Positions 4,031 to 35,294 of a DNA stretch of 64,000 nucleotides are shown piece by piece (position 1 is the stretch's first letter; the number at the start of each line of letters is the position of its first letter). The translations under genes and the position numbers were made by a program. Source of the stretch: Gemmatimonadales bacterium (GTDB taxonomy: Bacteria > Gemmatimonadota > Gemmatimonadetes > Gemmatimonadales > GWC2-71-9); NCBI GenBank assembly GCA_037189525.1, contig JBBCJC010000002.1, forward strand, positions 320,001 to 384,000, given 5' to 3'. The notes beneath the pieces were generated by a model. The model was not told the origin of the DNA and did not search any database. It worked only from the letters and a program-made list of their open reading frames with translations.

Positions 4031-5130
4031 GCGCGCTGCGTGGCTTCGTCCGAAAAGAAACCTGGCATCTGCTTCGCGATCGCCAGACGCTCGGCATTCT
4101 GATTTTGATGCCGTTGATCCAGGTTCTGCTCTTCGGTTTTGCGGTGCGCACGGAAGTCGACAACATTCGCCTCGCCATCGTCGACCCGACGCCGGACTAT
4201 CGGAGCGTAGAACTCCGAAGCCGCTTTGGCGCCACGTCGAACTTTCGGATCGTCGGAGCCGTCGGCAGCACTGCCGAGCTGCAGCCGCTGTTCGAGAGCG
4301 GACAGGTTCGCCAGGCAGTGGTCTTCGAACCGAGGTTTGCGGAACGGATCGGCCGCGGCGAGGCGGTTGCTATTCAACTCATCACCGACGCCACCGATCC
4401 GAATACCGGTAGCATCATGCAAGCGTACGCGATGTCGGTGATTCGCCAATACGAGGCCGAGCTGGCTCGGACGGCGCCGCGCGTGCGGATCGTGCCGCAG
4501 GTTCAGATGCGGTTCAACCCGACGCTCGAGAGCGTCAACCTCTTCGTGCCCGGCCTGATTGCCTTCGTGCTAACGCTCACCTCGGCGCTGATGACGGCCA
4601 TCTCGATCACACGCGAGAAAGAGATGGGCACCATGGAAGTGCTGCTCGTCTCGCCGCTCCGTCCCTGGCAGATCGTGGTGGGCAAGGTGATCCCGTACAT
4701 CGCGCTCGGTTTCGGGAATGTTCTGCTCGTACTGACGGCGGCTCGGGTGGTCTTCGGCGTTCCGATCAATGGCAACCCCGCGCTGCTTCTGGCGGAGAGC
4801 CTGCTCTATATCGTGGTCGCCCTCGCGCTCGGTGTGCTGATCTCGACCGTGGCGCCCTCGCAGCGGGTGGCCATGATGGCGGCGCTGGCCGGGTTGATGC
4901 TGCCGACCATGATGCTCTCGGGATTCATCTTCCCGATCGAGAGCATGCCGGCACCGCTCCGTGCGCTCTCCAACATCGTTCCGGCGCGCTGGTTCGTCAT
5001 CGTCGTGCGCGGCATCATGATCAAGGGCATCGGCATCGAACATCTCTGGCGCGAAACGCTCGTCCTCGTCGGCATGGCCACCACGCTGCTGACCTTGAGC
5101 GCCCGGCGGCTCGCCGTCCGGCTGGGATAA
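4027..5130 (+). CDS. ABC-2 type permease
   Basis: TM helices, REKEMGTMEVLLVSP, LSGFIFPIESMP. Confidence 0.93.
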   Translation: MSALRGFVRKETWHLLRDRQTLGILILMPLIQVLLFGFAVRTEVDNIRLAIVDPTPDYRSVELRSRFGATSNFRIVGAVGSTAELQPLFESGQVRQAVVFEPRFAERIGRGEAVAIQLITDATDPNTGSIMQAYAMSVIRQYEAELARTAPRVRIVPQVQMRFNPTLESVNLFVPGLIAFVLTLTSALMTAISITREKEMGTMEVLLVSPLRPWQIVVGKVIPYIALGFGNVLLVLTAARVVFGVPINGNPALLLAESLLYIVVALALGVLISTVAPSQRVAMMAALAGLMLPTMMLSGFIFPIESMPAPLRALSNIVPARWFVIVVRGIMIKGIGIEHLWRETLVLVGMATTLLTLSARRLAVRLG

Positions 5131-5133
5131 CCC

Positions 5134-6276
5134 ATGCGCACCCTGCTCTTCCTGATTCGGAAAGAATACCTCCAGATTTTCCGCGATCGGGCCACGGTCT
5201 TCCAGATCTTCTTCATTCCGATCGTGCAGCTCCTGCTGCTCTCGAACGCGGCGACCTTCGGAATCACCAACGCGCGGATGCACGTCGTCGATCTCGACCG
5301 GAGCACGATGTCACGTGGTCTGGTGGAGCACCTCGTTGCATCGGGCCGGTTCGTGGTATCGTCGGCGGTGCCGTCGCAGGAGGCCGCCAATCAGAGCCTG
5401 CTCGATCGCGAGGCCACCGTGATCCTGACCATTCCGTCCCGCTTCGAGCGCGACCTGGTCCGCCAGGGCACCGCCCCGGTGCAGCTCGTTCTCAACGCGG
5501 AGGAGGGAGCGGCCGCGGGGATCGTTCAGGCCTATGCGCTGCAGATCATCGGCGACTATGGTCGCCAGCTTGGCATCGAACTGCGCCCCCAAACGGACCC
5601 GCGGATCGATCCGGCCCCGAGGGCGGCCACGGCGGCGTTCGACGTTCGTGCCCGCAGCTGGTTCAACCCGACGCTCAACTACAAGCACTACATGGTGCCG
5701 GGCATCCTCGTCTCCCTCGTCACGATCATCGGGATGCTGCTCACCGCGCAGAACATTGCCCGGGAAAAGGAGGCCGGCACGCTCGAGCAGCTCAATGTCA
5801 CCCCGATCACCAAGGGGCAGTTCATCGCGGGAAAGCTGCTGCCCTTCTGGCTGCTGGCGCTGGTGATGTTCAGCCTCGGTCTGATCGCCGGTAAGCTGGC
5901 GTTCGGAATTCCGATGCGCGGCAACCTGCTGCTCGTCTTCTTCTCGGCGGCGGTATATCTGACCGTGGCCCTGGGGACCGGCCTCTGGATCGCCACCATC
6001 GCGTCGACCCAGCAGCAGACCATGTTCGTCTCGTTCTTTGTGCTGGTGATTTACCTGCTGATGAGCGGTCTCTTCACACCGATCGACAGCATGCCCACCT
6101 GGGCGCAGTGGATGGCCGAGCTGAATCCGGTCAAGCATTTCGTGGTCATCATGCGTGCCGTGCTGGTGCGAGGCGCCGATCTGAGCGGTATCGCCGTACC
6201 GCTCGGCGCGCTGGCGACGCTCGGCCTGCTGGTGTTGACGGCTGCAGTCCGCCAGTATTCCAAGACTCACGGCTGA
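5134..6276 (+). CDS. ABC-2 type permease
   Basis: REKEAGTLEQLNVTP, MSGLFTPIDSMP. Confidence 0.93.
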   Translation: MRTLLFLIRKEYLQIFRDRATVFQIFFIPIVQLLLLSNAATFGITNARMHVVDLDRSTMSRGLVEHLVASGRFVVSSAVPSQEAANQSLLDREATVILTIPSRFERDLVRQGTAPVQLVLNAEEGAAAGIVQAYALQIIGDYGRQLGIELRPQTDPRIDPAPRAATAAFDVRARSWFNPTLNYKHYMVPGILVSLVTIIGMLLTAQNIAREKEAGTLEQLNVTPITKGQFIAGKLLPFWLLALVMFSLGLIAGKLAFGIPMRGNLLLVFFSAAVYLTVALGTGLWIATIASTQQQTMFVSFFVLVIYLLMSGLFTPIDSMPTWAQWMAELNPVKHFVVIMRAVLVRGADLSGIAVPLGALATLGLLVLTAAVRQYSKTHG

Positions 6277-6291
6277 CCTATCAGACCGCGC

Positions 6292-6340
6292 ATGCTCCGC
6301 GTCCTGATTGCCCTATGCCTGGCTGGCCCCCTGGCGGCGT
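6292..6340 (+). pseudogene. 5' remnant (signal peptide only) of a DUF885 gene
   Basis: MLRVLIALCLAGPLAA matches MIRVLLAFCIAAPLTA of the intact gene at 20420; similarity stops abruptly. Confidence 0.7.
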
Positions 6341-6592
6341 CAACGGCGCGATCTACTAGTTGGCGCGCTCAATCAGGCCGGGTTCCAATGCAAGCCACCG
6401 CAAGGCGCGCACCATATCCTGGCGGATTTACGGCAATCCGCCGAGTGGCTGACTATCGAGGGCGGCGTGGCGACGGTGCCGGGCACCAGCTTCTTTTCCG
6501 ATTCCCAGATGGGGCGGGACTACACACGATTCGCGTTCTGTAGGACGGAGGATCCGCTGCACGCGGCGGTGGAGCGGCGGCGGCGGTTGTAA
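6332..6592 (+). pseudogene. C-terminal fragment of a class I/II PLP aminotransferase
   Basis: RRDLLVGALNQAGFQCKPPQGA...GGVATVPGTSFF...YTRFAFCR; no N-terminal part or PLP-lysine region. Confidence 0.75.
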
Positions 6593-7044
6593 AGCCTGGC
6601 TGCGAGCCACCGACCGGAGCAGCTGAGGTGGCGGACAGTCCCGTTCGCGATTGGTCACCTAAGGCCAGTTGTTCGTCCGGCTGCGTTCATGTGAGCTTCC
6701 ACATGATCCGCATAAGTTGCGTATCTACAACATGTTACAGGATGACAGAACCTGGCTCATAACTTGAGATAGCATCACGCCAACCCCTTCCGGCGAGGCT
6801 ACGGGCAATGCATGCACCCTTCATCGTTGGGGCGATCGGGGGGGCGATCAGCTCTTCCTCCTTCAAGAGCACTCCCCAGTTGCAGCAGACCACGTCGTCC
6901 GATACCTGGTCCTGCAGTCCACCTCGGGGCCGCCAACTAATGTCATCGAACGAACGGCAGCAGTTGCTCAACCGACTGCTACCCGTTCACGTCGTCCTGA
7001 TGCTAGCATGCATTGAATGTCTACAAGCTTTGCGAGATATGTAG

Positions 7045-7761
7045 ATGGGAAACGCTGGCACCGCACAAGTATACATCCGGAACGGCATCTATTTCGTGAC
7101 GATCGACGGTGAGGGCATCGTTATGGACCTTCCGGGTGATCGGTACTATGGCCTTAGTGAGTTCGGTGCTATGGTCTGGCAAGCGATTGAACAAGGTCAC
7201 ACGGCTGCTGTGCCATTCCCTGAAAACCAATTTGCCCAGCAAGTGGACGAATGGGTACGGCTCGGCTTGATGACATTTCACGATCGGCCCCAAGTAGAGA
7301 TACCTATACGAAAGGAAGCCGGTACGCCTGCCATTAAGGCGTTTGATGATACTGTAGCACTGCAAGCCTCCTTTTCATGGACAGTGCTATGTCGCCTGTT
7401 TCTCTCTACGTGGCGGGTCAACCGAATACTCCGTCATCAAGGGATATGCGTTGCGTTGAAGCAAATTCAAGAGATTGCCATCGTCGACGAACTTAAAACG
7501 GACCATTGCGAACGACAACTTGGCAAGATCATCCGTACCTATCGCCTAGGGCGGCGCGTACTTAGCCAAGGTCAGGAAGATTGCTTGCCCCGCTCGCTGG
7601 CCCTGGCATATGTCCTCCGTCATGCTGGCATCGAAGCCGAAGTGTGCTTCGGAGTACGGCAGTTCCCGTTCTATGCGCATGCGTGGGTGGAAGCTAATGG
7701 AAGAGTTCTTAACGATGAGATCACAACGATCGGCTCCTACGCGGTTCTAGCACGATTCTGA
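7045..7761 (+). CDS. Lasso peptide B protein, fused RRE (PqqD-like) plus transglutaminase-like leader peptidase
   Basis: N-term DGEGIVMDLPGDRYYGLSEFGAMVWQAI (RRE); C-term CLPRSLAL...FGVRQFPFYAHAWVE...VLND. Confidence 0.92.
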   Translation: MGNAGTAQVYIRNGIYFVTIDGEGIVMDLPGDRYYGLSEFGAMVWQAIEQGHTAAVPFPENQFAQQVDEWVRLGLMTFHDRPQVEIPIRKEAGTPAIKAFDDTVALQASFSWTVLCRLFLSTWRVNRILRHQGICVALKQIQEIAIVDELKTDHCERQLGKIIRTYRLGRRVLSQGQEDCLPRSLALAYVLRHAGIEAEVCFGVRQFPFYAHAWVEANGRVLNDEITTIGSYAVLARF

Positions 7762-7782
7762 CAGCCTCACTAGGAGTAACGC

Positions 7783-9657
7783 GTGCATGGTTTTGTTGTG
7801 CGGTATATGAAAGCGATTGATGAACAGCAACCGCCAGTGCTTGACGTTTGCCAGGATGACAGGATTGGCCTAGCTGCAGGAAGGCGCTTCCGACTGCTAG
7901 TGCGGCCACTCCCGACAACACCAGAAGCAGAAGCCGAACGTCAACCGTATGTATTCGGGCACACCGTCGCTGTGTATCAGGGCCGGATAGACAATCGGCG
8001 TGAGATCATCGATCGAATTGGAGACTCACTGCTTGAGCAGGTCGGGGACAGCGAGCTTATTGCACGTGCCTATTCTAAGTGGGGGGCCAACTTCCCTGCT
8101 ATAGTACTGGGGGAGTACTCATTTGCGTTGATCAACCAGCATACAGAACAACTTATTGCCGGAAGAGACAGCCTTGGTATCGGTCATTTGTTCCAATATC
8201 AAGATACGAGCGCTGTCTGGGTCGCATCAAACCTGGAGATTCTGCTCGCCGCACTTCCGAGTCGCCCCTCATTTGACCGTAGTGCGCTGGCTGAATATAT
8301 CGCCACCGGCGGCTTACTCGTATCCGGTCGAACTATCTATACTGGGATCGATGAAGTTCCAGCCGCACATGTTCTAGTTCAGAGTGGAGCTGCCGTTACC
8401 GTTACGCGATACTGGGAGCCTGTTCCGGAATCACAGGCTCGTCTTCGCGGACCTGACGAATATGATGAAGAATTCAGGTCAATCCTATCGGCAGCCGTGA
8501 AGGCGGCTCTCCGATCCAATACACCAGTATGGTCGGACCTTTCGGGTGGACTCGATTCATCTACAGTGACCGCGCTCGCTGCGTCGCTTGATTGCAGTGG
8601 TAACGACGGTATAACAGCATTCTCGATGTCAGCATCGATGACAGCACTAAGCAACGAGAGCCCCTTTCAGGATGATTTCATTGCCCGTTACCCTATTCAA
8701 CAACATCGCCTCGACATTGATGACTATTTGAGCTTTGGGACACCCGAACCGCCATCATGCCACCCGTCTAAAGCGATCATTTATCGGCCGATTCGTCAGG
8801 CTACCGCCGAACTTTTTGCTCAGCATGGCGCGCAGACTCACCTCACTGGCCGTGGTGGCGACAACATCTTTTGCGGCGATGAGTTTCCACCAAGATACCT
8901 TGCCGGGTTGTTACGTGGACTCAAACTGCGCCAATGGATCCGAGAGATAAACGATTGGGCACGTCAAGGAAAACGGAGTCTATGGAATCTTGTGTGGCAT
9001 TGTAGTCGGTCGAGCTTAACGGACTTGTACGCCGGCGAAGCAGACCGCGGAATCGTTCCGACTTGGTTGATCGCTCCGTTTCGTGACCAGGTAACCCAGA
9101 TAGATGAAGGTCAGTGGACGTCAGGATACCGATTGTACAGCGACCCGGGTCGAGAACTTCAGTATCGCTCAATACAAATGACGTCAAGGGTTGTCCGCTT
9201 CATGCCTGTTGGCGATGAGCGGCACCCGTTGCTATACCGGCCCCTTGTAGAATTTGTTCTCGATCTTCCCTGGGAGCACCTCCTTCGACCAGATGAGAAC
9301 CGCATTATCCAGCGACGCGCTCTACGCAACGTCCTTCCAGAAAGCATCCGTCTTCGGACCTCAAAGACCAGTGCGACCCCCGTGTTTCTACGTGGGTTGC
9401 GCCGCCACTGGACAACTGTACGACACTATACCGAGGGACGGCGCCTAGCGGAGCTTGACATCCTTGACCCTATCCCTTTTCACGCCGCGTGCGAGCGCCT
9501 TCGGCATGGGCTGCTAGCAAAGCAGTTTCGCTACCTAGTTGGTGCCTTGACCCTCGAAATCTGGCTGGAGGCGAACTCCAATCCAGTGCGTGACCAAGCT
9601 ACAGCCGGATTCTTCGCCGCCGACCACAGCATAGGCCAAATGAAGTGCATGAACTAA
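7783..9657 (+). CDS. Lasso peptide cyclase (asparagine synthetase-like C protein)
   Basis: GRIDNR, GRDSLG, PP-loop DLSGGLDSS, LTGRGGD, RHPLLYRPLVEF; no N-terminal catalytic Cys; adjacent to B protein. Confidence 0.92.
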   Translation: MHGFVVRYMKAIDEQQPPVLDVCQDDRIGLAAGRRFRLLVRPLPTTPEAEAERQPYVFGHTVAVYQGRIDNRREIIDRIGDSLLEQVGDSELIARAYSKWGANFPAIVLGEYSFALINQHTEQLIAGRDSLGIGHLFQYQDTSAVWVASNLEILLAALPSRPSFDRSALAEYIATGGLLVSGRTIYTGIDEVPAAHVLVQSGAAVTVTRYWEPVPESQARLRGPDEYDEEFRSILSAAVKAALRSNTPVWSDLSGGLDSSTVTALAASLDCSGNDGITAFSMSASMTALSNESPFQDDFIARYPIQQHRLDIDDYLSFGTPEPPSCHPSKAIIYRPIRQATAELFAQHGAQTHLTGRGGDNIFCGDEFPPRYLAGLLRGLKLRQWIREINDWARQGKRSLWNLVWHCSRSSLTDLYAGEADRGIVPTWLIAPFRDQVTQIDEGQWTSGYRLYSDPGRELQYRSIQMTSRVVRFMPVGDERHPLLYRPLVEFVLDLPWEHLLRPDENRIIQRRALRNVLPESIRLRTSKTSATPVFLRGLRRHWTTVRHYTEGRRLAELDILDPIPFHAACERLRHGLLAKQFRYLVGALTLEIWLEANSNPVRDQATAGFFAADHSIGQMKCMN

Positions 9658-9737
9658 ATGACTTGCTCAGCCGGATGCCAGCTCCCCACGGTTCGAGCAT
9701 TTCTTTATCGGGAGCATTTCTCAAGACGAGGTGTATC

Positions 9738-9923
9738 ATGGAACGGAAGCAGAGCGCCCTCAGGCAGATCAACAGCACTGGTGGCAAGACCGAGTTCACG
9801 CCGACGCCGCTCGGCACTGTGTCCGGCACGAGGGTCCTGGGCCTGGATCGCCTCACGGGTACGATTCCTGGTTGTACCGCGTGCGACTTTAACACAGACT
9901 ACGCGAAGGGTGTGTTCGGCTGA
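9738..9923 (+). CDS. Lasso peptide precursor (61 aa)
   Basis: GAGGTG RBS at 9728-9733, ATG 9738; MERKQSALRQINSTGGKTEFTPTPLGTVSGTRVLGLDRLTG-TIPGCTACDFNTDYAKGVFG; LGxxxxT leader end with Asp at core position 9; directly after cyclase and followed by a hairpin. Confidence 0.75.
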   Translation: MERKQSALRQINSTGGKTEFTPTPLGTVSGTRVLGLDRLTGTIPGCTACDFNTDYAKGVFG

Positions 9924-9962
9924 AAATCGCTGAACCATACACCTGCAACAAAGGATGACAAC

Positions 9963-10018
9963 GGTGTGCACCCGTTCACTAGCCTCAAGCTAGCCTAGTA
10001 CACGGAACGGGTGCCACC
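9963..10018 (+). promoter_or_regulatory. Stem-loop downstream of the precursor gene
   Basis: GCACCCGTTC (9968-9977) pairs with GAACGGGTGC (10005-10014); extra ACTAG/CTAGT and GGTG/CACC pairing; no U tract. Confidence 0.6.
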
Positions 10019-10068
10019 AATGTCAGCCGAACCTGTCGCTGCCAGTGTAGGTCTGCACCGGAGACAAG

Positions 10069-11676
10069 ATGGTTTATCGTAAGAATCCTCACGAGACTGT
10101 TGGCTTGGTGTTGATCGCTTCTTGCGACGTTGATCCCTTACGCCAGGCCCTTCAGGTGGCTCTAGCACAGCGTGGAATCCGCTGCATCGTCGAGACGGCT
10201 ACGTGGGCCGCAGTGCAACCGGTCGACATGGCTACAAATCCCGAAGTACTACTACTACTCCCTTGGGATCTTGTCGCTGATCTTTCCTGGTGTCGCGGTG
10301 TCCCAGCCGATCCACCAGACCTCAGACAGCTTGAGTTGCGAATGGAAGAAGTCATCCAGTGGCTCGCAACACGGCACAACACCACGTTCGCGTATCTCCC
10401 TGCACCAATCCCACCGATTTGCGGCCGGGGACGCGACAATCGAATCCTAGCAAATACTCTCGTACGCGCCGTCAGCCGACTTTCGCCTATCGTATTGCCG
10501 TCAGAGATGTTCTCCTGCACCAGCTTATTCGATCATGGGTGCGCTATCGCCGATACAGCCCTTAGCACAGCCGCTGAGATACTCATTCGGACTGCAATGG
10601 CTGAATCGACAACTACGGCTAAGGTCCTTGTAACGGACTGTGATCATGTGCTGTGGAGTGGGGTAGTGGCGGAAGATGGTGTCGAAGGCATTTCATTTGG
10701 TCCTTGTGGGCAAGGATATCCCCATTTTGCCTACCAACGACTGCTAGTTCGACTGAAGCGTGACGGGATATTGCTCGCCGCGGTAACACGGAATGATCCC
10801 GAGGTAGTCGGTCCATTACTCGCAAGCGGTCGGTTGCAGCTCAACGACGGGGATTTTGTAGCAGGGATCGCCAGCCACGATGCTAAATCAGCACAGATCC
10901 GGCAGTTATCGGAACAGCTCGGACTGTCCTTGGATTCTTTTGTATTCGTCGACGATAATCCAGTGGAGCTGGCTGAAGTTGCCAGTGCACTTCCCAAGGT
11001 TCGGTGTCTTCAGTTCCCCGAGGACGTGCGCAACTTCCCCTCGTTTCTCGAGGAACTGGCTGGGCTATTCCCCAGAGGAATCAGGACCGCAGAGGATCGC
11101 GACCGAACCGCATACTACCGCCAGCGATTGGAGGGTGTACAACCGAGTCAACTGTCGGGGGCGGATCTCAGCCAATTTCTGCGGGGCTTGGAAATGCGAC
11201 TAACCGTCGAGAATCGAACGCACAGTGATTCCACAAGGGCGCTACAGCTCATCAATAAGACCAACGTATTCAACTTGAACGGCCATCGTTTTTCCGATCG
11301 CGAGATAACAGAGCTGCTTGTCAACGGAGGCCAGCTATGGACGGCAACGCTCGAGGACCGGACCGGCAATCACGGTGAAGTATTGGCATGCTTAACCGAT
11401 GGGGACAATGTGGTACGGTCTTTTGCAATGTCGTGTCGTGTTCTTCAGCGGCGAGTTGAGTATGCTTTCCTTGTCTGGTTCACGCGCCTTTCGAACGCAC
11501 CCCAGAAATGGCAGTTTGTTCCTACCGACCGGAACGAACCAATGCGGCGCTTCTTCGCTGACCCTGCCTTTAGGTCGTTAGGACCCGACGAGCCAATGCG
11601 GCTCGACACCAAAGCTTTTGCGACTACACACGCTGACGACCTAAGTTTATTCGATCTTCGTACCGTAGGAGTATGA
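10069..11676 (+). CDS. FkbH-like HAD-IIIC protein (glyceryl transferase/phosphatase family)
   Basis: KVLVTDCDHVLWSGVVAEDG, FVFVDDNPVE, QLINKTNVFNL, LEDRTGNHG, FAMSCRV. Confidence 0.9.
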   Translation: MVYRKNPHETVGLVLIASCDVDPLRQALQVALAQRGIRCIVETATWAAVQPVDMATNPEVLLLLPWDLVADLSWCRGVPADPPDLRQLELRMEEVIQWLATRHNTTFAYLPAPIPPICGRGRDNRILANTLVRAVSRLSPIVLPSEMFSCTSLFDHGCAIADTALSTAAEILIRTAMAESTTTAKVLVTDCDHVLWSGVVAEDGVEGISFGPCGQGYPHFAYQRLLVRLKRDGILLAAVTRNDPEVVGPLLASGRLQLNDGDFVAGIASHDAKSAQIRQLSEQLGLSLDSFVFVDDNPVELAEVASALPKVRCLQFPEDVRNFPSFLEELAGLFPRGIRTAEDRDRTAYYRQRLEGVQPSQLSGADLSQFLRGLEMRLTVENRTHSDSTRALQLINKTNVFNLNGHRFSDREITELLVNGGQLWTATLEDRTGNHGEVLACLTDGDNVVRSFAMSCRVLQRRVEYAFLVWFTRLSNAPQKWQFVPTDRNEPMRRFFADPAFRSLGPDEPMRLDTKAFATTHADDLSLFDLRTVGV

Positions 11677-11720
11677 ACTCATGAACTAGTCCATCCGCTA
11701 AAGCAGCAATCGAGTAAGCA

Positions 11721-14333
11721 ATGAAAAAAAACTTGTCACTTGATGCCATACGCGAATGGAACAGCATCTACTGGCCGACTCTGTCGCCCGATGGACAGTG
11801 GTTCGCTTGCTGCGTTGCACACGGCTCCGGCCTTACAACGTTGCTCGTTACAGGAACATCTACTCAATACAAATGGCGTCTCTCACTTAGCCTCAAGATC
11901 CCGAAGGCAGACCTCAAGACAGCGCCATTCAGCTTCTCGATGGACTCCCGCTGGCTCGTTGCAATTCACGCAGGTGGCGCCAAACTCATATCGATTAGCT
12001 CTGGCATCGTCCGTCAAATTGACGGTGCGACAAAAGTTGCTTTCAATAGTCCTTTATCGAGTTGGATTGCCGTAGAATACCGCAGCACTGTGAACGGCAA
12101 ATGTTCTCTGCTGCTATACAACCTCAGTACAGGCCATACCGTACGTATCGCAGAGGGGGTACGCGACTGGACTTTTAGGCCCGATGGCAGAGTGATCGCT
12201 TGGATTAAGAATTCCGAATCCGGTGCGGATCAGCTCATATGTCATAGCATGGGTACCGGCATCGAACAGGTTTTGTACCGAAGCACCCATGGCGAGCTCA
12301 CAAATCTTGGTTGGTCAACACTAGGGGAAAACGCTCTGATCGCGGTATCTCTGGGTCGGAGTACCGACCCAGGCCATGTCGTGGTCGCTAAGCGGATTCC
12401 ACTTAGAGCGTCGGACCCATCGGCTATCGTGTGTGTGGTACCGATTCCAGACGGAAAAATTGTTCCGACCCGCGACCTAATTGGACCACGCTTGGCCGCT
12501 GATGGTAAGCGGCTCATTATTCCATTGGCAACGCAAAACAGAACGTCTGACCGACAATCCCAACAGACCGAAAGGGTCGGAACCGGCGGGGTTACCTCCG
12601 ATAAAAACCCTATTGTCTGGCATTGGCGAGACCGTCAGTTACCCTCCCGACGCTGTAAAACACCGCCGGTACCGGATGTCATAGCGATCGTCTCGATCGA
12701 GGACGGTGTGACAGTATCGATCGAAGTTGGCACAGGGGCCGACCTCGTTTTGTTATCGGATGACAGGTATGCGATCTACAGCGATCACAGACCGTACGAA
12801 CGGGAAACCAGTATGTGTGGGCTCGTCTATCGAGACCTCTATATTGTTAACACACACACAGGTGACCGCCGACGCATCGAAACCCGGCTGCCTAATGTAG
12901 CCCATTGTGATACAGATCTCCCCTCGCCCGACGGTCGGCTCTTTCTGTACTGGAATGGTGCGACCGGTGAGTACATCGTGCTCGACGCGGCCACGGGTAG
13001 CGTTCGCGATATCACTCGCGGAATGTCCGTGAGTTTCGTAGACGATGATTGCGACTACAACGTCCCCTTTCCACCGATTCCGCCCGTGGGCTGGTGCACG
13101 AATAGTCGAGCGGTTGTGCTATGTGACGGATGGGACCTTTGGATTGTACCGATCGGCGAAGGAAAGCCAAGTCGGCTGACACCATCCGGACGAGAGACGA
13201 GTATCAGGTATCGTCGTGTCACACAGGCGGGCCAAAGCCGAGGCAACATCGATCTGAATCGGGACGTCTTTGTCCATATGTATGGGGAGCAGTCGAAACG
13301 CGAGGGGATTGCCCGGATTACTTGCAATAGTGACAATGGATTTCACGTCTTGCTCTGGGACAATGCGAAAATTTGGTGGACACACGCACTACAGGCCGAG
13401 ACTTTAGCGTATAGCCGCCAAACGTTTGTATGCTGTCCAGACTGGTTCGTTGTCGGCACAGATCATCGTTTGACGAATATCAATCCACAGCAAGCAGACT
13501 ACAACTGGTCCCCTGGAACTCGGCTGATCAACTATACGGATGCCTACGGAAAACACCTTCAAGCGGCTCTCTTCTTACCAAGCAACTATCAAGCCGGTGC
13601 AAAGTACCCTACTATTGTCTCCATATACGAGAAGCTATCGGGAACGTTGCACCGCTATGAACCACCAGACCTAGCTCGCATCGTCAATACCAGCATCTAC
13701 ACCAGTTGCGGCTATGCAGTCCTTCACCCCGATATCCGTTATATCATTGGTGAGCCTGGGCTCTCTGCAACCGAATGTGTGGTACGAGGGACTGAGGCCG
13801 CGATACAAACTGGAATCGTCGACCCAGACCGGATCGGCCTCTTCGGTCATTGCTGGGGCGGTTACCAAGCCGCAGCGATTGCGGCCAACTCCTCGTTATT
13901 CAGAGCGGTTGCCGTTAGCGGCGGTATTACAGATCTGGTGACAATGTACTATTCTGTATACTGGAAAACTGGTGAGTCAAACCAGGCTCTTATGTTGGCC
14001 AATCAAGGACGAATGGCGGGACCGTTTTTCGAGCATCCGAGCGCCTTTGTCCGTAATTCGCCACTGTTTGTTGCCGATCGCATCAATTCACCGATGTTGA
14101 TTCTTCATGGCGACAACGATGACGTAGTAGATTTTAACCAAGCGGTTACACTGTACAATGCGTTGCGGCAGTTGGGGCGTCAGGTCGTACTGATACAGTA
14201 TCCTGATGAAGGGCACTCGTTGCGATACCCACGAAACCAACACGACGCCATAGGCCGAGTCCGAGATTTCTTTGATTCGATGCTACAAGATACCACACCG
14301 CCCACATGGCTCGACGTAGGGGTTTCTCGCTAA
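11721..14333 (+). CDS. S9 (prolyl oligopeptidase family) peptidase, candidate lasso isopeptidase, Cys at nucleophile position
   Basis: Beta-propeller repeats (SPDG), GLFGHCWGGY, HGDNDDVV, PDEGH; no signal peptide. Confidence 0.85.
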   Translation: MKKNLSLDAIREWNSIYWPTLSPDGQWFACCVAHGSGLTTLLVTGTSTQYKWRLSLSLKIPKADLKTAPFSFSMDSRWLVAIHAGGAKLISISSGIVRQIDGATKVAFNSPLSSWIAVEYRSTVNGKCSLLLYNLSTGHTVRIAEGVRDWTFRPDGRVIAWIKNSESGADQLICHSMGTGIEQVLYRSTHGELTNLGWSTLGENALIAVSLGRSTDPGHVVVAKRIPLRASDPSAIVCVVPIPDGKIVPTRDLIGPRLAADGKRLIIPLATQNRTSDRQSQQTERVGTGGVTSDKNPIVWHWRDRQLPSRRCKTPPVPDVIAIVSIEDGVTVSIEVGTGADLVLLSDDRYAIYSDHRPYERETSMCGLVYRDLYIVNTHTGDRRRIETRLPNVAHCDTDLPSPDGRLFLYWNGATGEYIVLDAATGSVRDITRGMSVSFVDDDCDYNVPFPPIPPVGWCTNSRAVVLCDGWDLWIVPIGEGKPSRLTPSGRETSIRYRRVTQAGQSRGNIDLNRDVFVHMYGEQSKREGIARITCNSDNGFHVLLWDNAKIWWTHALQAETLAYSRQTFVCCPDWFVVGTDHRLTNINPQQADYNWSPGTRLINYTDAYGKHLQAALFLPSNYQAGAKYPTIVSIYEKLSGTLHRYEPPDLARIVNTSIYTSCGYAVLHPDIRYIIGEPGLSATECVVRGTEAAIQTGIVDPDRIGLFGHCWGGYQAAAIAANSSLFRAVAVSGGITDLVTMYYSVYWKTGESNQALMLANQGRMAGPFFEHPSAFVRNSPLFVADRINSPMLILHGDNDDVVDFNQAVTLYNALRQLGRQVVLIQYPDEGHSLRYPRNQHDAIGRVRDFFDSMLQDTTPPTWLDVGVSR

Positions 14334-14366
14334 ATTGCCGCACGGTGGCAGAGGATCGAGGATCCA

Positions 14367-16790
14367 ATGATCTCCCTAGTGCATGACGTCCGTCAGGCAG
14401 TTCGCAACATCCGCAATCACCCCGGCTTCGCGAGTCTAGCCGTTCTGGCTCTCGCACTCGGTATAGGCGCTGCTACGACTATCTTCAGCGTCCTCCAGCA
14501 TGTCCTTTTCAAGCCATTCCCCTATACTGATGCAGAACGTATAGTCGTTGTTCAAGTCCGGCGGTCAGATGCCGATCGTCGCAGCTGGCGCTCAGCCTTT
14601 CCGATCGCGGAGTTCCGCGAGTATGCCACACAGAGCGCCGTCTTCGCTGAGGTCGCAGCCGATGCTGTGGATGAGGTGCTGTTTGATACGTCGGAAGGCA
14701 TAGAGCATCTGCGTGGTGCGCTCGTGTCTGGCAACCTGTTTGCTTTTCTCGGCGTCCATCCTGTCCTAGGTAGGGGCATAGCGCCAGATGATGCGGCACC
14801 CGGGGCACCGGCTGTTTTCGTCATTAGCAATCGAATGTGGCGGGCACGGTTTGGCTCCGACCCTTCGGTCGTCGGGCAAACCTATGCGCTAAACGGAATG
14901 CCGACGGTACTGGTCGGCATCATGCCACCTCAATTCGCTCACCTGGACGCAGACCTCTGGCGGCCGGTGTCGCTCGATCAGCCGAGCCGTGATGCAGGTA
15001 GTCGTTTCTACAATCTGAAGGCGCGCCTCGCTCCCGGAGTAAGCACTACTGCTGCCGAGGCCCACCTGCAGTCGATCGCCACCAGAATCGCACCAGTCTT
15101 TCCGAGAATCTATCCGGAAGGCTATCGTGTGCACGTCGTCCGGTGGATCGACAGCGTAGTAGGCCCATTTCGCGCTACACTCTACATACTTGCTGCCGCC
15201 GTTGCAGTCCTCCTATTGATTGCCTGTGCCAACGTCGCCAATATGCTCTTAGCGCGTGCCAGTACGCGCGAAGGCGAACTGGCTATACGCGCCTCTCTCG
15301 GCGCCAGCCGGAGCGCTCTCGTCAGACAGCTCCTGATCGAGAGCTCGCTGTTGGCTGCGGCTGGAGCCCTCATCGGCGTCCTGGCAGCGGTCTTGGGTGT
15401 TACCTTCCTGGTGCGCATCCTTCCCGATCAGCTAATCCCTCCCGAGGCAACTATACGGATCAATCTCCCGGTGCTTGTCTTTGGCATCGTGCTCGCCTTC
15501 AGCACAGTACTCATCTTCGGCCTAGTACCCGCGTTACGGACCGCACATCGCGATCTCGTTTCATCCGTCCCGTCGGCAGCGCGCAGCACCAGTACAAAGA
15601 GCCAGACCACGCTCAGCAGTATGCTCGTAGTCGCCCAAGTTGCGTTAGCGCTCGTTCTTGCAGTCGGGGCCGGTCTTCTCATCCGTACGTTTGTCAATGT
15701 ACGAAACGTTCAGCTCGGCTTCGACCCAGCAAACACGTTGGCACTAACAGTTCGTTTGCCGTCGAATGGCTCACCACTATCCGGTTCGCTGCTTGTCGGT
15801 CAAATTCTTGACAGATTACGGACTGTTCCCGCTGTGACGGCAGCGACAGTCACAAACGGGATCCCCGGATACGGCGGTCTGCGGACTGAGGTCGAAGTTC
15901 CAGGCCAGCCCACGGTTGAGCCAGGTACCATGTCACTCGTTCAATTCTCAAGCGAGGATCTCGCCAGCGTGCTTCGCCTCCCGATCCTGCGAGGTCGTTT
16001 TTTGTCACGAGACGATATCACCGCTGGTCGGCGGGTAGCCGTTGTCAACGAGGCACTGGCACAACGGTATTTTGGTCATACGGACATCGTTGGGCGCTCG
16101 GTGCGCTTGAACATACTCGCGCTCCTGGCTGGCAATGCGGCGGACACGACAAGTTTCGAAGTGGTCGGCATTACCGCAGATGCTAAGAATCACGGGATCC
16201 AAGAGCCGGCAATTCCGGAGTCGTTCGTTCCATACTCACTCGCAAGCCTACCAAATTATGTACTGCTGATCCGAACTTCTGGATCACAGTTGGCGCCGTT
16301 TGACATCACCCGACAGCTGCGAACTGTCGACCGCGGCATCGTAGTCACTGAGAACCGGCGGCTTATCGAGTACCTACAAAAGTTCTCGTACTCCGAACCT
16401 CGTTTCGGCGTCGCCGTCCTCGGTATGTTTGCTAGTACTGCCCTTATCCTGGTGGCTCTTGGAGTGTATGGCGTGGTTGGGTATACGACCTCACGCCGAA
16501 CTCGAGAATTCGGCATCCGGCTTGCTCTTGGTGCGACGCCGGCGACCATTCAAAGACATGTGATCGGCCGTTCCCTCCGCCTAGTTGGGTTTGGTCTCGT
16601 ATTCGGGCTAATCGCCGCATTTGCAGTTACCCAACTCATCAGAAGTCAACTCTGGGGTGTACCGCCACGGGATCCCATGACCTTAGCCATTGCCGTCAGC
16701 GTGGTACTCATCGTGGGAATTGTAGCATGCTGGGCCCCCGCACGCCGGGCAACAAGTATTGATCCGACCGTTACGATGCGGAGCGAATAA
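14367..16790 (+). CDS. Duplicated MacB/FtsX-type ABC permease (ADOP-like)
   Basis: LALGIGAATTIFS, LLIACANVANMLLARA, RRTREFGIRLALGA, PARRATSIDP. Confidence 0.92.
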   Translation: MISLVHDVRQAVRNIRNHPGFASLAVLALALGIGAATTIFSVLQHVLFKPFPYTDAERIVVVQVRRSDADRRSWRSAFPIAEFREYATQSAVFAEVAADAVDEVLFDTSEGIEHLRGALVSGNLFAFLGVHPVLGRGIAPDDAAPGAPAVFVISNRMWRARFGSDPSVVGQTYALNGMPTVLVGIMPPQFAHLDADLWRPVSLDQPSRDAGSRFYNLKARLAPGVSTTAAEAHLQSIATRIAPVFPRIYPEGYRVHVVRWIDSVVGPFRATLYILAAAVAVLLLIACANVANMLLARASTREGELAIRASLGASRSALVRQLLIESSLLAAAGALIGVLAAVLGVTFLVRILPDQLIPPEATIRINLPVLVFGIVLAFSTVLIFGLVPALRTAHRDLVSSVPSAARSTSTKSQTTLSSMLVVAQVALALVLAVGAGLLIRTFVNVRNVQLGFDPANTLALTVRLPSNGSPLSGSLLVGQILDRLRTVPAVTAATVTNGIPGYGGLRTEVEVPGQPTVEPGTMSLVQFSSEDLASVLRLPILRGRFLSRDDITAGRRVAVVNEALAQRYFGHTDIVGRSVRLNILALLAGNAADTTSFEVVGITADAKNHGIQEPAIPESFVPYSLASLPNYVLLIRTSGSQLAPFDITRQLRTVDRGIVVTENRRLIEYLQKFSYSEPRFGVAVLGMFASTALILVALGVYGVVGYTTSRRTREFGIRLALGATPATIQRHVIGRSLRLVGFGLVFGLIAAFAVTQLIRSQLWGVPPRDPMTLAIAVSVVLIVGIVACWAPARRATSIDPTVTMRSE

Positions 16791-16830
16791 ATCTTCGGTC
16801 GTGCGGATCATCACTATTGTCAACGAAAAT

Positions 16831-17865
16831 TCATCGGGCCTTGTGGCCTGGCCCGACCGTAGCTCGATGTTCGATCGACGATCGCTCCTTTCGAAGCGAG
16901 ATTCCGTAACGCTGTAGCTCCTTGAAGAAGGTCGTACGGCCCAAGCCGAGAGCTAGTGCCGTACGCTCAGCATTCCAACTATTTGCAGCACAAAAGTCAA
17001 GAAGGCGGCCCCGCATCGTAACAGGTAGTGGTGTTTGTCGAGGCGCAACGCCACTTGGCATGTGAATTACCGCTGTCCCAAGTCCGAGGGATTCGGCCAC
17101 GACCCGACCATCGAGAACTCTCTCATCGGCGAGAAAGACAGCCCGCTCGATCGTACTCCAGAGTTCGCGCACGTTCCCTGGCCACCGGTGCCCGAGCAAC
17201 ACAGGTTCTGCACTTGGCGCCAGCTCGGCACCAGCCGGCGTAGCGAAATAACGGGCCAACAATATGACATCGCCCCAACGCTGGTCGAGAGGCAGCAGCG
17301 TAAGTACCGCACCAACTACCCGCTGCATCAGATCATATCGGACCAACCCATCGGCGACCTTATTACCCACATTCTCCTGGACTGCTGCGATGACGCGGAA
17401 GCGGCTTTGCCGCTTGGTTGTCTCGCCGACTCTACGGAAATTCTTGTTGTCCAAGACTCGAAGAAGCTTGCCCTGCGATTCATAAGGCATACTGCAAAGC
17501 TCATCGAGAAACAGGGTACCATTGTTCGCATCCTCGATCAAGCCAGATACACTTTCGATTGCACCGCTGAACGCCCCTTTGCGATGACCATATAGGGTGC
17601 CCTCGACAAGTTCGCGCGGGATGGCCGCGCAGTTCACATCAACGAGAGCGCCAGGCCGCCCACTCCATTGATGGATTTCCCTTGCAAACAACTCTTTCCC
17701 TGTTCCTGTAGCGCCGATGAGCAGAATCGGCAGGTCGCTTTTGGCAAAGCGTCTCGCATTTGCGACAGCATGTCGTATTTCTGGGGACGTTCCGAGTATC
17801 GTCGTTTCGGCAACTTCCCCGGCAACCTCGCCCGAAATCTCTACATCGCGAGCAGCATGCCGCAA
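16831..17865 (-). CDS. Sigma-54-dependent activator (AAA+ plus Fis HTH), no N-terminal sensor domain; start uncertain
   Basis: GATGTGKE, VNCAAIP, GAFSGA, LFLDEL, WPGNVREL, TALALGLGRTTFFKEL. Confidence 0.9.
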   Translation of the reverse strand: MRHAARDVEISGEVAGEVAETTILGTSPEIRHAVANARRFAKSDLPILLIGATGTGKELFAREIHQWSGRPGALVDVNCAAIPRELVEGTLYGHRKGAFSGAIESVSGLIEDANNGTLFLDELCSMPYESQGKLLRVLDNKNFRRVGETTKRQSRFRVIAAVQENVGNKVADGLVRYDLMQRVVGAVLTLLPLDQRWGDVILLARYFATPAGAELAPSAEPVLLGHRWPGNVRELWSTIERAVFLADERVLDGRVVAESLGLGTAVIHMPSGVAPRQTPLPVTMRGRLLDFCAANSWNAERTALALGLGRTTFFKELQRYGISLRKERSSIEHRATVGPGHKAR

Positions 17866-18517
17866 CCTGGAACGTTTTCTTGACGACCGTTCCAGACATG
17901 GCGCTCATCACTTTTTGACTAACTCGGGAGGTTGCGGTTCGGTGATCGTTTCCACATCGTCGTCCCTTCTGATGATGGTCGGCGCCAGAAAAAAATACGA
18001 ACGTTGTCTCGATCGACCGACTGTGTATGCCACCGAGCTACGCCCCTCTCGTTGGTAGGAAATGGGGAAACACCTAGTGGTCGGTCAGGACGACTTGGGC
18101 CGCGACGGCATCCTACGTTATGATTCCGTCTGGATCATAGCGTAGGACGCTGTACAACATATCGACGGACCTGAGCCCACCTCCACTTCGACCAGTATTT
18201 GTGTTACCTAGTCTAGGTGGTATTCAATCCGTAGACTTTGTCTGGATCGCATCCTCGATGGCTTTCCCCCGCGACGAGTCGTCTTCCCACTCTCCGCGAG
18301 ACCTTCTAGTAGGCGAGATACTCCTGCCGGAAAATGTCGTGCAGGCAAGACGTACATAACGCGTAAGACATGGGTTTTACTCGAGGGAACCCCAAAGACT
18401 GGAGTGCGGGTGGCGGGCCAGTGACGAAAGCACCAAACGCCATTGTACGACAACGGGTTAGCTCGCGGGGTGCGAGACTTAAAGTTGTAAATGGTTTCAC
18501 TTATGCTAGAGCAGTCG

Positions 18518-19467
18518 CTATCGATCTTTACGGACGTCCGTGGGCGCTTCGGCGAGGAGCTTGTAAAGCGACGGTCGCGAGATACCCATCAGGCGCCCAG
18601 CCTTGGCTTTGTTGCCATCTGTGGAGCGCATCATCTCTTGGGCTTCCTGGTGCTTGGTTTGACGCGCCTTCGCTTGTACTCAAATCGGCTTGGGAATATC
18701 GGATACTTGGATGGGACGTGGACTCCGCAGTCTGCTAGCGATGTACTGACAAACTGACCGGAGTTGTCTCATGTTTCCGGGCCACGGCGCTGTGCCAAGG
18801 ATCGCAGCAGCAGCAGCAGCAGACAGTACCGGCACAAAGTCGCGCCCCAGCTCGACGAATGCCTCCTGCAAGTACGCTGTCGCGAGTGGGTACTATTTCC
18901 CGATGGCGGTCACGCAGCGACGGCAGGGAACTGTAAGGCACTCCGCACGATAGAACAGTTCTTCGAAAAACAGGCCTTCTGGGAACGGGCTGCCAGATCC
19001 ACCGAGGTCGCGCAGATGATTCGGACATCAACTTTGCGCGGATGGCTATCGCCGATTCGTCGAATGAAGCCGGTCTCGAGAATGCCAAGGAGAGTTTGTT
19101 GAAAGCGATGTGATGCGTGTCCCAGCTCATCGAGGAGCAACGTCCCGGTATGTGCCTGTTCGACTAGGCCAACACGATCGTGATGGGCGCCTGTATATGC
19201 CCCTTTCGTTGAGCCGAGCAACTCTGCTTGCCGAAGTTCATCCGGAATGGACGTGACCGAAAGTTCCACAAAAGGGCTCGCCACGCGGGGTGATATCCGG
19301 TGTATATACCTCGCAAGCGTACTCTTCCCGGTACCCGTCGGACCAAGAATGAGTATTGGATAGGGTGTTTCCGCCAGATCCCTCACAAGGTGGTCAACCG
19401 TTGGGTGGGGTACAAGCTTCGCCTGTGTGCTCATGATACCAGCTTCCACGTCTTGATATGGGTACAC
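18518..19467 (-). pseudogene. Degraded sigma-54-dependent activator
   Basis: GPTGTGKS, GAYTGA, LLLDEL, then frame changes through ELFYR / LPSLRDR / WPGNMRQL, in-frame TGA at 18680-18682, then HTH GNKAKAGRLMGISRPSLYKLL ending at 18518. Confidence 0.85.
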
Positions 19468-19932
19468 ACCAACCGGGATGGCTTGTCACAATATCAACAT
19501 CGCGACGCACCTAGCGGGTGTGATGGGAGTCACATCCAACGTACATCCCTAGCGCCTTCCTGTGATGGGGTGCAAGAATTTACACAAAACGGCCGGCAAC
19601 GTTTGGGAAACGCGTGTCGAGCAACAATTGCACTCTATGCCTCGCTGGTACGTAGCTCTTTCGCCTCCCCCCGCATCCGCCGGATGGAATTGACCTGACT
19701 CCTTCTTGTAGGACAAAGGATCGCAGTAGTGTTGGTGCTGTTGTGGCCCTTCCTAAGCAATGATCGGCGATAGGTGAATCAATGTAGCCGTGTCGAGTCA
19801 GGAACGGTGTAAGACCAAGAAAACTGTCGATAGGTACGCAAGGATCGTGTCCACACGGTAGCTACGTATTACTGGCCACGGCATCACACGCGGTCATTCT
19901 CGCGACGCACGGATGTATCGATCCCTTTCAGC

Positions 19933-20400
19933 GTGCCCCTGCAAGCAGCAACTCGACGACGGCGCCCAAACGGCACCCTGCGCCCGATCCGCGCCGAATA
20001 CTTTTTGATCAACATGGTGTCGATAATCATCTTCCCGTTCCTGATCCGCCCCATGCCCGACGTGATCTTCGGCATCGGCGGCGATCGGTTCGACGCCTAC
20101 CTCACCGAGCGGCAACAGAGCCTGCCCGGATTCATCCGAAGCGCATTCCGACCATGATGTTCCTTTATCACACTCGCGCTGCTGAGCGCAGCTATTACCG
20201 CTCCGGCGCAGGACACGCTCCGACTGGAGGCGCTCCACGCCGCCACGCGGGATCGCGACCCGCGGGCGCGCCAGCTGCGGGCGGCGCTGGTGCGCGGTGC
20301 CGATCTCAGCGGTATCGCGGCACCGCTCGGCGCACTGGCGCTACTCGGCCTGCTGGTGTTAACGATCGCGGTCCGCCAGTATTCCAAGACGCACGGTTAG
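19933..20400 (+). pseudogene. Collapsed second copy of the TetR-TolC...permease operon (TetR 3' end, TolC 5' end, permease 3' end)
   Basis: 20030-20277 aligns with 1-247; 20276-20400 aligns with ~6152-6276; frameshifts in the TetR and TolC parts. Confidence 0.88.
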
Positions 20401-20419
20401 CGGCCTCCGAGGAGACTCC

Positions 20420-33875: not shown

Positions 33876-34875
33876 AAACCTCTCAAGTTGTTGCCATTAA
33901 ACGACTTACAGGACAACCCACCAAACAGGCACCCCACGGGGGACACCGAATATACGCCGCACCTGGCAATCCGTAAATGCAGCAGGCGCACGAAGTTCCG
34001 TCAGGTGGGTTCTTCAGAACGCGGCATCACCAAAGGCCGTGTATTCAGAGCACAGGCAACCACGATGAAGACATACACCTGCATCCGCATTCCTGTTGAT
34101 AGCACCGAAGGCCCGCGATTACCCCGATCACCATCCCCATCCACCCCGGATCGACGTGAGCGAAGGATACCCCTGCCCTCTGCGGGTTAGAGGCGGCACG
34201 TCTTTAGAGTGATTGGCCTCTGGGCGCCGTATATCGACAATGAGCAATACGAATGACCCCAACAGCACATGGGTCCAGCACAAGGACTCAAGGCGCTGAA
34301 CGGTACCAACCTCATGCCAGCGTTGAACTAGACGGCACTCAGGAATCGGGGTCATCTACGACGTGAAGGGACATCCTAGTCAATGCAGACACCGGTGCAC
34401 GAGCTCGGCGTATCGGACGGAACGACGATCCCCACAGCACATCTCGCCTCCAGATCAACTGGCGACCTTAGCAAACACGGAGTGGGTTCGCTCTTACCTT
34501 GAGAGGCGAACGGAGAGAACGCGCCGTCACGCGTGTCTTCTACACTAAAAGCGGTAAACGTCGTAGCGCGACGTATGGGGGGGGAACGAAAGAACCTTCA
34601 TTACGACGCCATTGGATGTAAGGGACAGGGGTTTCGATTTTCTCAGCCCAGAGAGAGTGAGAGACCACGGGGAAAAGGGCAACGACCATACACGAAAGCA
34701 CCAACGCCCTTCCGACATCTACCAAATCGACACCTCTCCCGTGGCTAACCGGCTTCGGCCCTGTTCTACCATTACCAAGATCCAGGCACGTACTCCGAAC
34801 CACACGGTTCGGTCGGGATAGCAGGTCGCCTCGATTCCGGCACGAAACAACCAGGCCTACCCGACGTAGCCGATC

Positions 34876-34891
34876 TGTTTCACGTGAAACA
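34876..34891. promoter_or_regulatory. parS site 1
   Basis: Perfect palindrome TGTTTCACGTGAAACA. Confidence 0.95.
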
Positions 34892-34935
34892 TCCGATATC
34901 CAGATGGCGTCCCCAGGACGGAAAGCGGGATCGCG

Positions 34936-34951
34936 TGTTTCACGTGAAGCA
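34936..34951. promoter_or_regulatory. parS site 2
   Basis: TGTTTCACGTGAAGCA (1 mismatch). Confidence 0.85.
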
Positions 34952-35224
34952 GCTTCGGAAGAACCGGCCAACGAGCGTCGCACCTCAGAAGTGCCCCCCC
35001 ATGAGTCGACTATCGCTTGTTAGTCGATCAGGATGCCCACCCAATACTTCTGACCAAGCCGGCACAACTTGGTCCTGTCTCCTGAGACCAGCGCCGCGAG
35101 TTCGCTGTTCAACGAGCGATCAGAGTGGGATGGAAGCCTGGATTCTGGCGTGGGAACGGGAATGGAGGACCATGGAGAACTGAACAGTCAGCGGGGACCT
35201 GTAGGACTGAGTTGGCTGACTTGG

Positions 35225-35240
35225 TGTTTCACGTGAAACC
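35225..35240. promoter_or_regulatory. parS site 3
   Basis: TGTTTCACGTGAAACC (1 mismatch). Confidence 0.88.
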
Positions 35241-35294
35241 TTCGCCTGCCGGTTTACCGGAGAAAGTGAACCGATCATATGAGATCGGGGGATT

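Follow-up and report, generated by a model that had tools for sequence, protein, structure and literature searches.

Lasso peptide clusters of the McjABCD type with a fused B protein combine a precursor (A) with Thr at position -2 and Asp at core position 9, a leader peptidase (B) fused to the recognition element (RRE) for peptides that are made by the ribosome and modified after translation (RiPPs), an AsnB-like cyclase (C) and an adjoining transporter. All of this recurs in a window of 64,000 nucleotides from a Gemmatimonadales bacterium (assembly GCA_037189525.1, contig JBBCJC010000002.1, positions 320,001 to 384,000; coordinates below count from the first letter of this whole stretch), where six co-oriented open reading frames on the plus strand (7045-16790) encode B, C, the precursor, an FkbH-like enzyme, an S9 peptidase and a permease, in exactly the order given by an earlier note on this DNA. 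Unlike in the McjABCD type, the precursor has a predicted Thr1 and would place Cys5 and Cys8 in the ring, the spacing between leader motif and cut is longer, and the permease is of the ADOP type without an ATPase of its own. The cluster is a genuine lasso-type pathway for an undescribed lasso subfamily, and B, C, A and ADOP are its conserved core. FkbH and the S9 peptidase are possibly optional, single-lineage additions, and a novel decoration of the peptide by them is possible, with support limited to one genome.

The two additional genes can be compared with several described systems. The isopeptidases AtxE2 and SpI-IsoP (NF033523) likewise have the S9 fold and are encoded within lasso clusters, but the S9 peptidase here has 870 residues, a Cys nucleophile and secreted S9 peptidases as its kin, and scores 83.6 bits with NF033523 against a cut-off of 400 (its secreted relative P0261 scores 80.7). 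The glyceryl-loading enzymes FkbH, OzmB, Mad7 and Mad14, which act on an acyl carrier protein (ACP), share the TIGR01686 match above cut-off, the HAD motifs and an invariant Cys; the protein here differs in being of the long type, with an additional domain at the N-terminus that resembles that of BF1531, and no ACP, FabH or dehydrogenases accompany it. Acylated lassos, made with the GNATs of the albusnodin/IatT type or the CoA-transferase of Snou-LP, also have an acyl-chemistry gene in the cluster and a Lys in the core, but those enzymes use acyl-CoA, whereas 1,3-bisphosphoglycerate would have to serve as donor here; albusnodin/IatT-type acylation genes are stated to co-occur with lasso clusters in >110 biosynthetic gene clusters (available text of bioRxiv 2024.12.31.630886), whereas the present pairing is a singleton. 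With class V lassos (gelatinamin with GelP, lariocidin B), the cluster shares the gene for a cysteine-nucleophile peptidase and a conserved Lys, but GelP, a clostripain-like (C11) enzyme, acts outside the cytoplasm on a Lys of the ring, as opposed to an S9 fold, no signal-like stretch and a tail Lys here. Glyceroylation is not among the lasso modifications listed in the available text of PMC13352647, whose disulfide classes there include no ring-ring case, nor among those in the corresponding text of PMC9266682. The literature searched, which left out most subscription papers, contained no lasso pathway with an FkbH protein, in agreement with the earlier note, and also no glyceroylated lasso, no ACP-less FkbH and no natural S9 acyltransferase or ligase with a nucleophilic Cys.

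The lasso assignment itself is supported. B scores 75.4 bits with the B2 model NF033537 (cut-off 33), its residues 14-53 weakly match PqqD/RRE (PF05402 at E 0.003, below cut-off; NF033536 is weak, too), and it is 30% identical to the fused B of a sister locus, L221. Cys180, His212 and Asp224 are present, which we take to be the catalytic triad. C consists of PF00733 and GATase domains, and its top NCBIfam match is the lasso cyclase NF033535 (225 bits, cut-off 525); the ATP-binding SGGLDSS motif is intact, and 138 of 145 near-invariant columns are kept. Among the best 120 of 153 matches, 17 relatives of C are 50-62% identical over most of the length, and a PDB sequence search with C returned AsnB-type enzymes only. 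The precursor has a predicted core of 20 residues, TIPGCTACDFNTDYAKGVFG, with Thr1, Cys5, Cys8, Asp9, Tyr14 and Lys16, behind a 41-residue leader that ends in Thr-Gly (Thr40, Gly41) and thus has Thr at -2. The lasso-type cluster proposed in the earlier note is supported, with B2 above its cut-off, a Thr(-2)/Asp9 precursor, and C below the cut-off of its best family, the lasso cyclase.

A search of 1.84 billion representatives with the precursor gave six matches, which were the precursor itself, two short relatives (P0255 and P0259) and three repeat-protein matches that were dropped. The three precursors have 22 invariant positions; Thr(-2), Thr1, Gly4, Cys5, Cys8, Asp9, Thr12, Asp13, Tyr14, Ala15 and Lys16 are common to all, the order of Thr(-2) and then Asp at core position 9 is found in 3/3, and both relatives carry an additional Cys3. 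As P0255 and P0259 agree in source and in the length of the longest contig (7502 and 6035 bp) with the two best cyclase matches, they are probably the cognate precursors of these cyclases. Judged by eye, the distance from the RRE-type leader motif to the cut exceeds that in the L221 precursor by 8-10 residues. Lasso peptides can begin with Leu, Trp and other residues. First residues are catalogued in PMC12670498, and the available text of the metanodin paper names Gly, Cys, Ser and Ala, with Asn added. Thr1 as an unprecedented first residue is not established; the 'Thr1' matches inspected in the literature are, in the text available, Thr12, Thr15 or Thr18.

In the sister clusters, the slot between A and ADOP that holds FkbH and the S9 peptidase here is empty. 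L221 has the order LuxR, precursor, fused B, C and ADOP, and in L244 C is followed by ADOP at the contig end; both C proteins are 34-35% identical to the one here, neither locus has FkbH or S9, and each of the two genomes carries an FkbH on other contigs. The B2 profile matched 0/171 FkbH locus records (two of them duplicates, 96 of at least 12 kb), and it matched 15 of the 24 cyclase loci used to build it; the FkbH profile matched 0/24 cyclase loci, with 171/171 in its control. As an indirect check, 0/45 cyclase contigs (15 of them of at least 8 kb) were equal in size to the contigs of the best 120 of 654 FkbH matches; one cyclase contig equal to an S9 contig (5395) was taken as chance, as the sources differ. 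Among the matches listed, neither FkbH nor S9 has a clade that parallels the cyclases of 50-62% identity: the best FkbH matches reach 50-51% and are ordinary subfamily members, and the best S9 matches reach 32-35%. DNA around these cyclases was not found in 400 genomes of the own phylum, 400 of the phylum of G430, 194 of the family and 400 of the class of G532, 400 of the own family, viral contigs and plasmids (overlapping samples, with 3-6 candidates scored per genome), the best being G532 and G839 at 34-35%. The co-occurrence of lasso B and C with FkbH that the earlier note had proposed as a check was thus negative in the loci obtained, among which the 50-62% clade is not represented, and a conserved tailoring system is not borne out, with C running straight into ADOP in the two nearest sisters.

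Some further lasso-like loci came up in these comparisons. The genome has a second lasso cluster (L013, C3:126385-129059) with RRE, B2, cyclase and a 39-residue precursor, which weakly matches the lasso leader model NF033521 (18.5 bits, cut-off 19); two S9 genes lie few kb upstream. The precursor of L221 (1200-6464) has 49 residues and a core with four consecutive Asp and one Cys. As named by eye, L245 (8300-19400) contains two B2, two cyclase-like genes, ADOP, an oxidoreductase-like gene and an adjoining integrase-like gene, and in L223 (7857-8993) and L246 (7924-9048) a methyltransferase-like gene adjoins the cyclase.

The FkbH-like identity of the fourth gene holds, with 192 bits on TIGR01686 (cut-off 146.65) and the catalytic residues kept. 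Its best relatives (best 120 of 654 matches), 44-51% identical to it, belong to one subfamily with a length near 545 residues. Loci were taken for the top 80 of 578 genome matches and the top 80 of 545 metagenome matches, from which 46 subfamily loci, two of them from genomes of the same genus, were picked by hand. The neighbours in these loci are genes for glycosyltransferases, polysaccharide deacetylase, GNAT, MaoC-SDR, AAC(3)-like proteins, MBOAT and NeuB, and an ACP-like gene is found within 5 kb in 41/46, and in 22/22 where at least 3 kb are available on both sides. Here, no dedicated ACP is present in the cluster; a genome search with an ACP profile built from 22 of the 46 loci (ACP family matches being weak) found only the fatty acid synthase-type ACP on C3, none of the 17 PP-binding matches (PF00550) in the genome falls within the window, and the three partner families of the FkbH subfamily are absent from the genome. 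FkbH derives from polysaccharide-acylation cassettes, with ACP and transferase left behind. FkbH enzymes that have been characterised act by loading a dedicated ACP (PMC7489565).

Asp190, Asp192, Asp295, Asp296 and Cys456 of FkbH are invariant in 45/45 rows; in work on OzmB, the glyceryl group is reportedly carried on the FkbH Cys. The protein deviates at 29 of 168 near-invariant columns, as compared to 6.0 +/- 3.3 (maximum 13) in the 44 others, and the loss lies in the eroded N-terminal domain (about 1-180), where 19 of 39 columns remain. Over residues 3-338, the FkbH model (pLDDT 86) matches BF1531 (3slr, Z 22.5), which was also the only hit of a PDB sequence search. The C-terminal domain, which contains Cys456 and has an alpha/beta fold at 376-533 in the model, may be GNAT-like; in fold searches with the whole model, the HAD part took up the hit lists, and no GNAT match was among those listed. 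The tree gave FkbH no supported sister group, and a joint structure prediction for FkbH and the precursor scored 0.00, which is no verdict and counts as evidence neither way. FkbH as a pseudogene was rejected, the gene being intact and under purifying selection while it changes fast.

The cassette of ACP and long FkbH in polysaccharide loci recurs in L011, L012, L017-L038, L097-L117 and L122, where the partner is a GNAT, a 320-residue protein without clear Pfam family, a fusion of MaoC with SDR, or an acyltransferase of the AAC(3)-like kind. The database protein P0011 fuses MaoC to FkbH. No paper on this cassette surfaced in the literature search.

The S9 peptidase (PF00326, 94.8 bits) indeed has a Cys at the nucleophile position, as the earlier note had claimed: the codon at 13851 is TGC and encodes Cys711 in the motif GHCWGG. 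A single contig of run X1, which may be the source of the assembly and is not independent, spans 5000-21500 at a depth of 112 with 0 differences, and therefore neither the gene order nor the Cys codon is an assembly error. Position 711 is Ser in 13/13 database relatives and in 21/21 loci of the same genus (three being paralogs from the own genome). Asp800 and His832 are kept. The open frame of 871 codons starts where the mature chains of the relatives start, and the N-terminal signal-like stretch of the latter, as judged by eye, is missing. In the tree, the protein falls among 14 rows whose clade has a support of 98/98, but as its branch is long (1.25, compared to at most 0.41 for the others), its exact position is unsure. 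The model (pLDDT 79) has the complete fold of beta-propeller and alpha/beta hydrolase; the fold search matched it to structures of DPP IV/S9 with E 1e-30, and AtxE2 (5txe) ranked 43rd; one unnamed cluster at 0.90 from an ESM Atlas search was not used. B2 was found near the S9 kin in 0/21 loci with 1.5-kb flanks. The catalytic domain keeps 98 of 155 near-invariant columns.

The S9 peptidase descends from secreted Ser peptidases and has lost the signal-like stretch and the Ser. It is a maintained, fast-changing gene with changed constraints, and a pseudogene was rejected in view of the intact frame and conservative changes. The standard lasso isopeptidase seen in it by the earlier note has to be given up: the NF033523 score stays below cut-off and the protein groups with secreted S9 peptidases. 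An AtxE2-type isopeptidase was rejected for the same score and for the Cys that replaces Ser in the Ser-Asp-His triad.

The ADOP permease (TIGR03434, 763 bits, cut-off 622) is the probable exporter. The ABC permease of the earlier note is thus confirmed as a permease, but it is a lone ADOP of the MacB/FtsX type, with no ABC ATPase reading frame seen in the island described below. The intergenic gaps from B via C, A, FkbH and S9 to ADOP are 21, 80, 145, 44 and 33 nt, and sites like those of Shine and Dalgarno (SD) lie upstream of most cluster genes. Promoter and terminator scans gave signals at shuffle level only, and no sigma-54 consensus site was found upstream of B.

Table 1. Genes of the lasso cluster and adjoining elements of the island (window coordinates)
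Feature	Position	Strand	Remark
Lasso B, fused RRE and leader peptidase	7045..7761	+	NF033537 above cut-off
Lasso cyclase C, uncharacterised subfamily	7783..9657	+	Asn_synthase and GATase domains
Precursor A, 61 aa	9738..9923	+	SD-like GAGG upstream
Long-type FkbH	10069..11676	+	TIGR01686 above cut-off
S9 peptidase with Cys711	11721..14333	+	PF00326; GHCWGG motif
ADOP duplicated permease, MacB/FtsX type	14367..16790	+	TIGR03434 above cut-off
Island 5' region, frameshifted gene-start remnant	6641..6998	+	71% to 5' end of paralogous island, C2:278653-279017
Sigma-54 activator without sensor domain, island backbone	16831..17865	-	paralog C2:268615-269670
Second sigma-54 activator, truncated, island backbone	18910..19467	-	185 aa vs 306 aa in paralogous island

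The cluster is part of an island. In 1-kb bins, GC is 0.52-0.59 in the island and 0.62-0.70 in the flanks, and the low-GC stretch reaches from ~6.6 to ~20 kb, taking in both sigma-54 activators. GC at third codon positions (GC3) is 0.52-0.59 in the five large cluster genes and both activators, compared to 0.79-0.80 in two host genes, but the precursor, at 0.79, is host-like. The same atypical composition in all six genes, as stated in the earlier note, therefore stands for the five large genes and not for the precursor, and as the stretch continues over the sigma-54 genes, composition marks the island, not an operon; shared composition as proof of a single operon was rejected. Similarity to the 5' region (71%) and to the sigma-54 pair (75-79%) is found in a second island of the genome (C2:258.9-279.0 kb; L014, L015), which has type II secretion-like genes (by eye) between the activators that are absent here, an activator that is truncated here, and different cargo in the same slot, namely proteins of 161, 570 and 1537 residues. 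The slot filled by the lasso cluster is thus one of variable cargo, in an island that shows other signs of loss. In 21 genomes of the same genus (73-98% complete), the island was not found beyond short paralogous stretches. A further run, X2, has a 97.7% identical ADOP stretch (14574-16694) and nearly no cover over 7204-13815; nothing was drawn from it, since its joint from 6621 to 14173 rests on 27 letters.

Both island edges (6152-6592 and 19884-20449) carry degenerate copies of nearby genes, which are the end of a permease (85%), a TetR/TolC junction (83%), the end of an aminotransferase (76%) and a DUF885-like start (by eye). This suggests an insertion with duplicated flanks. Elsewhere in the window, a lower-GC gap without clear genes lies at 33900-35300 between ParA-like and MnmG-like genes, as judged by eye, and is possibly near a replication origin.

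As an explanation for the whole locus, it is tentatively preferred here that the two inserted enzymes are not needed and that the main product is an unacylated lasso. From what is known of the family, the RRE of B would bind the leader and B would cut after Gly41, C would adenylate Asp9 and join it to the amine of Thr1, and a ring of 9 residues, followed by 11 residues of loop and tail, would result, with a predicted monoisotopic mass of 2060.90 Da, or 2058.88 Da with a Cys5-Cys8 disulfide. ADOP would export the lasso using an ATPase encoded elsewhere. The S9 peptidase would be cytoplasmic and probably slow, at most trimming the peptide or turning it over, and FkbH would be a phosphatase or loader that uses 1,3-bisphosphoglycerate and acts on a host thiol (e.g., fatty-acid ACP), with no route onto the peptide. 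The strongest argument against tailoring is that the pairing is seen once, without carrier or transferase. Several points weigh against this explanation. On the side of the lasso, no lasso leader model matches the precursor, C scores below the curated NF033535 cut-off, and leader cleavage site and Thr1-Asp9 ring are predicted ones. On the side of the inserts, both genes are intact and closely packed in the common orientation, and purifying selection acts on them. The catalytic part of FkbH keeps 116 of 125 near-invariant columns, including the HAD aspartates and Cys456. The S9 domain has 0 stops, where neutral simulation (paralog to 67% identity) averages 4.2 and is stop-free in 2/300, and its changes are more conservative (BLOSUM 0.0, compared to -0.60 +/- 0.16 simulated), which is a rough comparison only, the simulation covering all sites and the observed values conserved ones. 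That two independent recruits both shifted to thiol chemistry is a coincidence hard to accept. The comparison of loci, finally, covers sister clusters that are only 34-35% identical, one of them cut at the contig end, and not the 50-62% cyclase clade, and the contig-size check spans the best 120 of 654 FkbH matches.

A glyceroylation of the peptide by FkbH, by whatever route, is to be weighed, too. We regard it as unlikely, but the two inserts, being intact and maintained by selection, lend it some probability; of the glyceroylated lasso in the earlier note this much stands, and what speaks against it are the missing ACP and transferase of the subfamily. In favour of tailoring, it weighs most that a single operon took up two unrelated genes which kept their catalytic cores and both point to thioester chemistry. 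FkbH keeps HAD aspartates and Cys456 while its N-terminal domain erodes, as expected if partners were dropped and the chemistry retained, and the Ser-to-Cys switch of the S9 peptidase is unique as compared to 34 relatives. Such Ser/Cys switches occur in thioesterases and N-acyltransferases of the alpha/beta-hydrolase fold and can switch the activity (PMC9825947, in the text available), and acylation of lasso Lys by GNATs is known (bioRxiv 2024.12.31.630886, likewise). Lys16, in contrast, is conserved also in relatives without a found FkbH or S9 partner and is therefore not evidence of acylation; its conservation as proof was rejected. Nothing in the 171 and 24 loci shows a co-occurrence, the cluster has no ACP, and it is one genome only. 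The most specific form of such tailoring, a carrier-free thioester relay from 1,3-bisphosphoglycerate via Cys456 of FkbH to Cys711 of S9 or a core Cys, by which an ACP-less FkbH and a cytoplasmic Cys-S9 would place a glyceroyl group (+88.016 Da) on a Thr1 lasso with a ring-internal Cys pair, is distinctly improbable; a hand-over between two buried cysteines without phosphopantetheine arm would be sterically doubtful.

Not all alternatives involve FkbH. A slim chance is given to a non-canonical product, made by another cut, by a link of Asp9 or Asp13 to Lys16, or as an unthreaded ring whose cysteines bind metal. The longer leader spacing, the leader models without match and the score of C would fit this, a ring-internal disulfide fits none of the classes I-IV (PMC13352647, in the text available), and a 7-residue ring starting with Cys would be arithmetically possible in both precursor relatives, but the alternative start gives Pro1 here, Thr(-2) and Asp9 are found in all three precursors, and B2, RRE and C are all present, C with the lasso cyclase as best family. 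Slimmer yet is the chance that the Cys-S9 is a transpeptidase, FkbH being unrelated, that trims the tail or links its carbonyl to Lys16 or another nucleophile, and thus converges on the chemistry of GelP, which forms a second ring from Lys to the C-terminus in class V lassos (PMC13178200, available text). Cys711, Asp800 and His832 are in place in a complete S9 fold, but this fold is unlike that of GelP, which is membrane-anchored outside the cell, the S9 peptidase has no signal-like stretch, Lys16 is in the tail, four residues from the C-terminus, and not in the ring, and among the matches listed no S9 orthologue was found with related cyclases. Least probable of all is a silent, slowly decaying island without any product. 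The frameshifted 5' gene, the truncated sigma-54 activator, the missing type II secretion-like genes and the flat GC3 would agree with that, but the six reading frames are intact, C is highly conserved, and most genes are preceded by SD-like sites.

The firmer novelty is thus the peptide family, with three precursors that predict a Thr1-Asp9 ring with two or three cysteines, an unstudied cyclase clade, and a ring-internal cysteine layout that none of the disulfide classes I-IV of a 2026 review covers. Being small, the cluster lends itself to tests in E. coli. If the inserts act on the peptide, the product would be a lasso with a glyceroyl group, the FkbH would work without an ACP of its own, and the Cys-S9 would be an acyltransferase or ligase found in nature and of interest for peptide ligation. 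If they do not, the locus would be a clear case of enzymes that were recruited into a RiPP operon and reshaped there, and it would caution against inferring tailoring from adjacency in a single genome.

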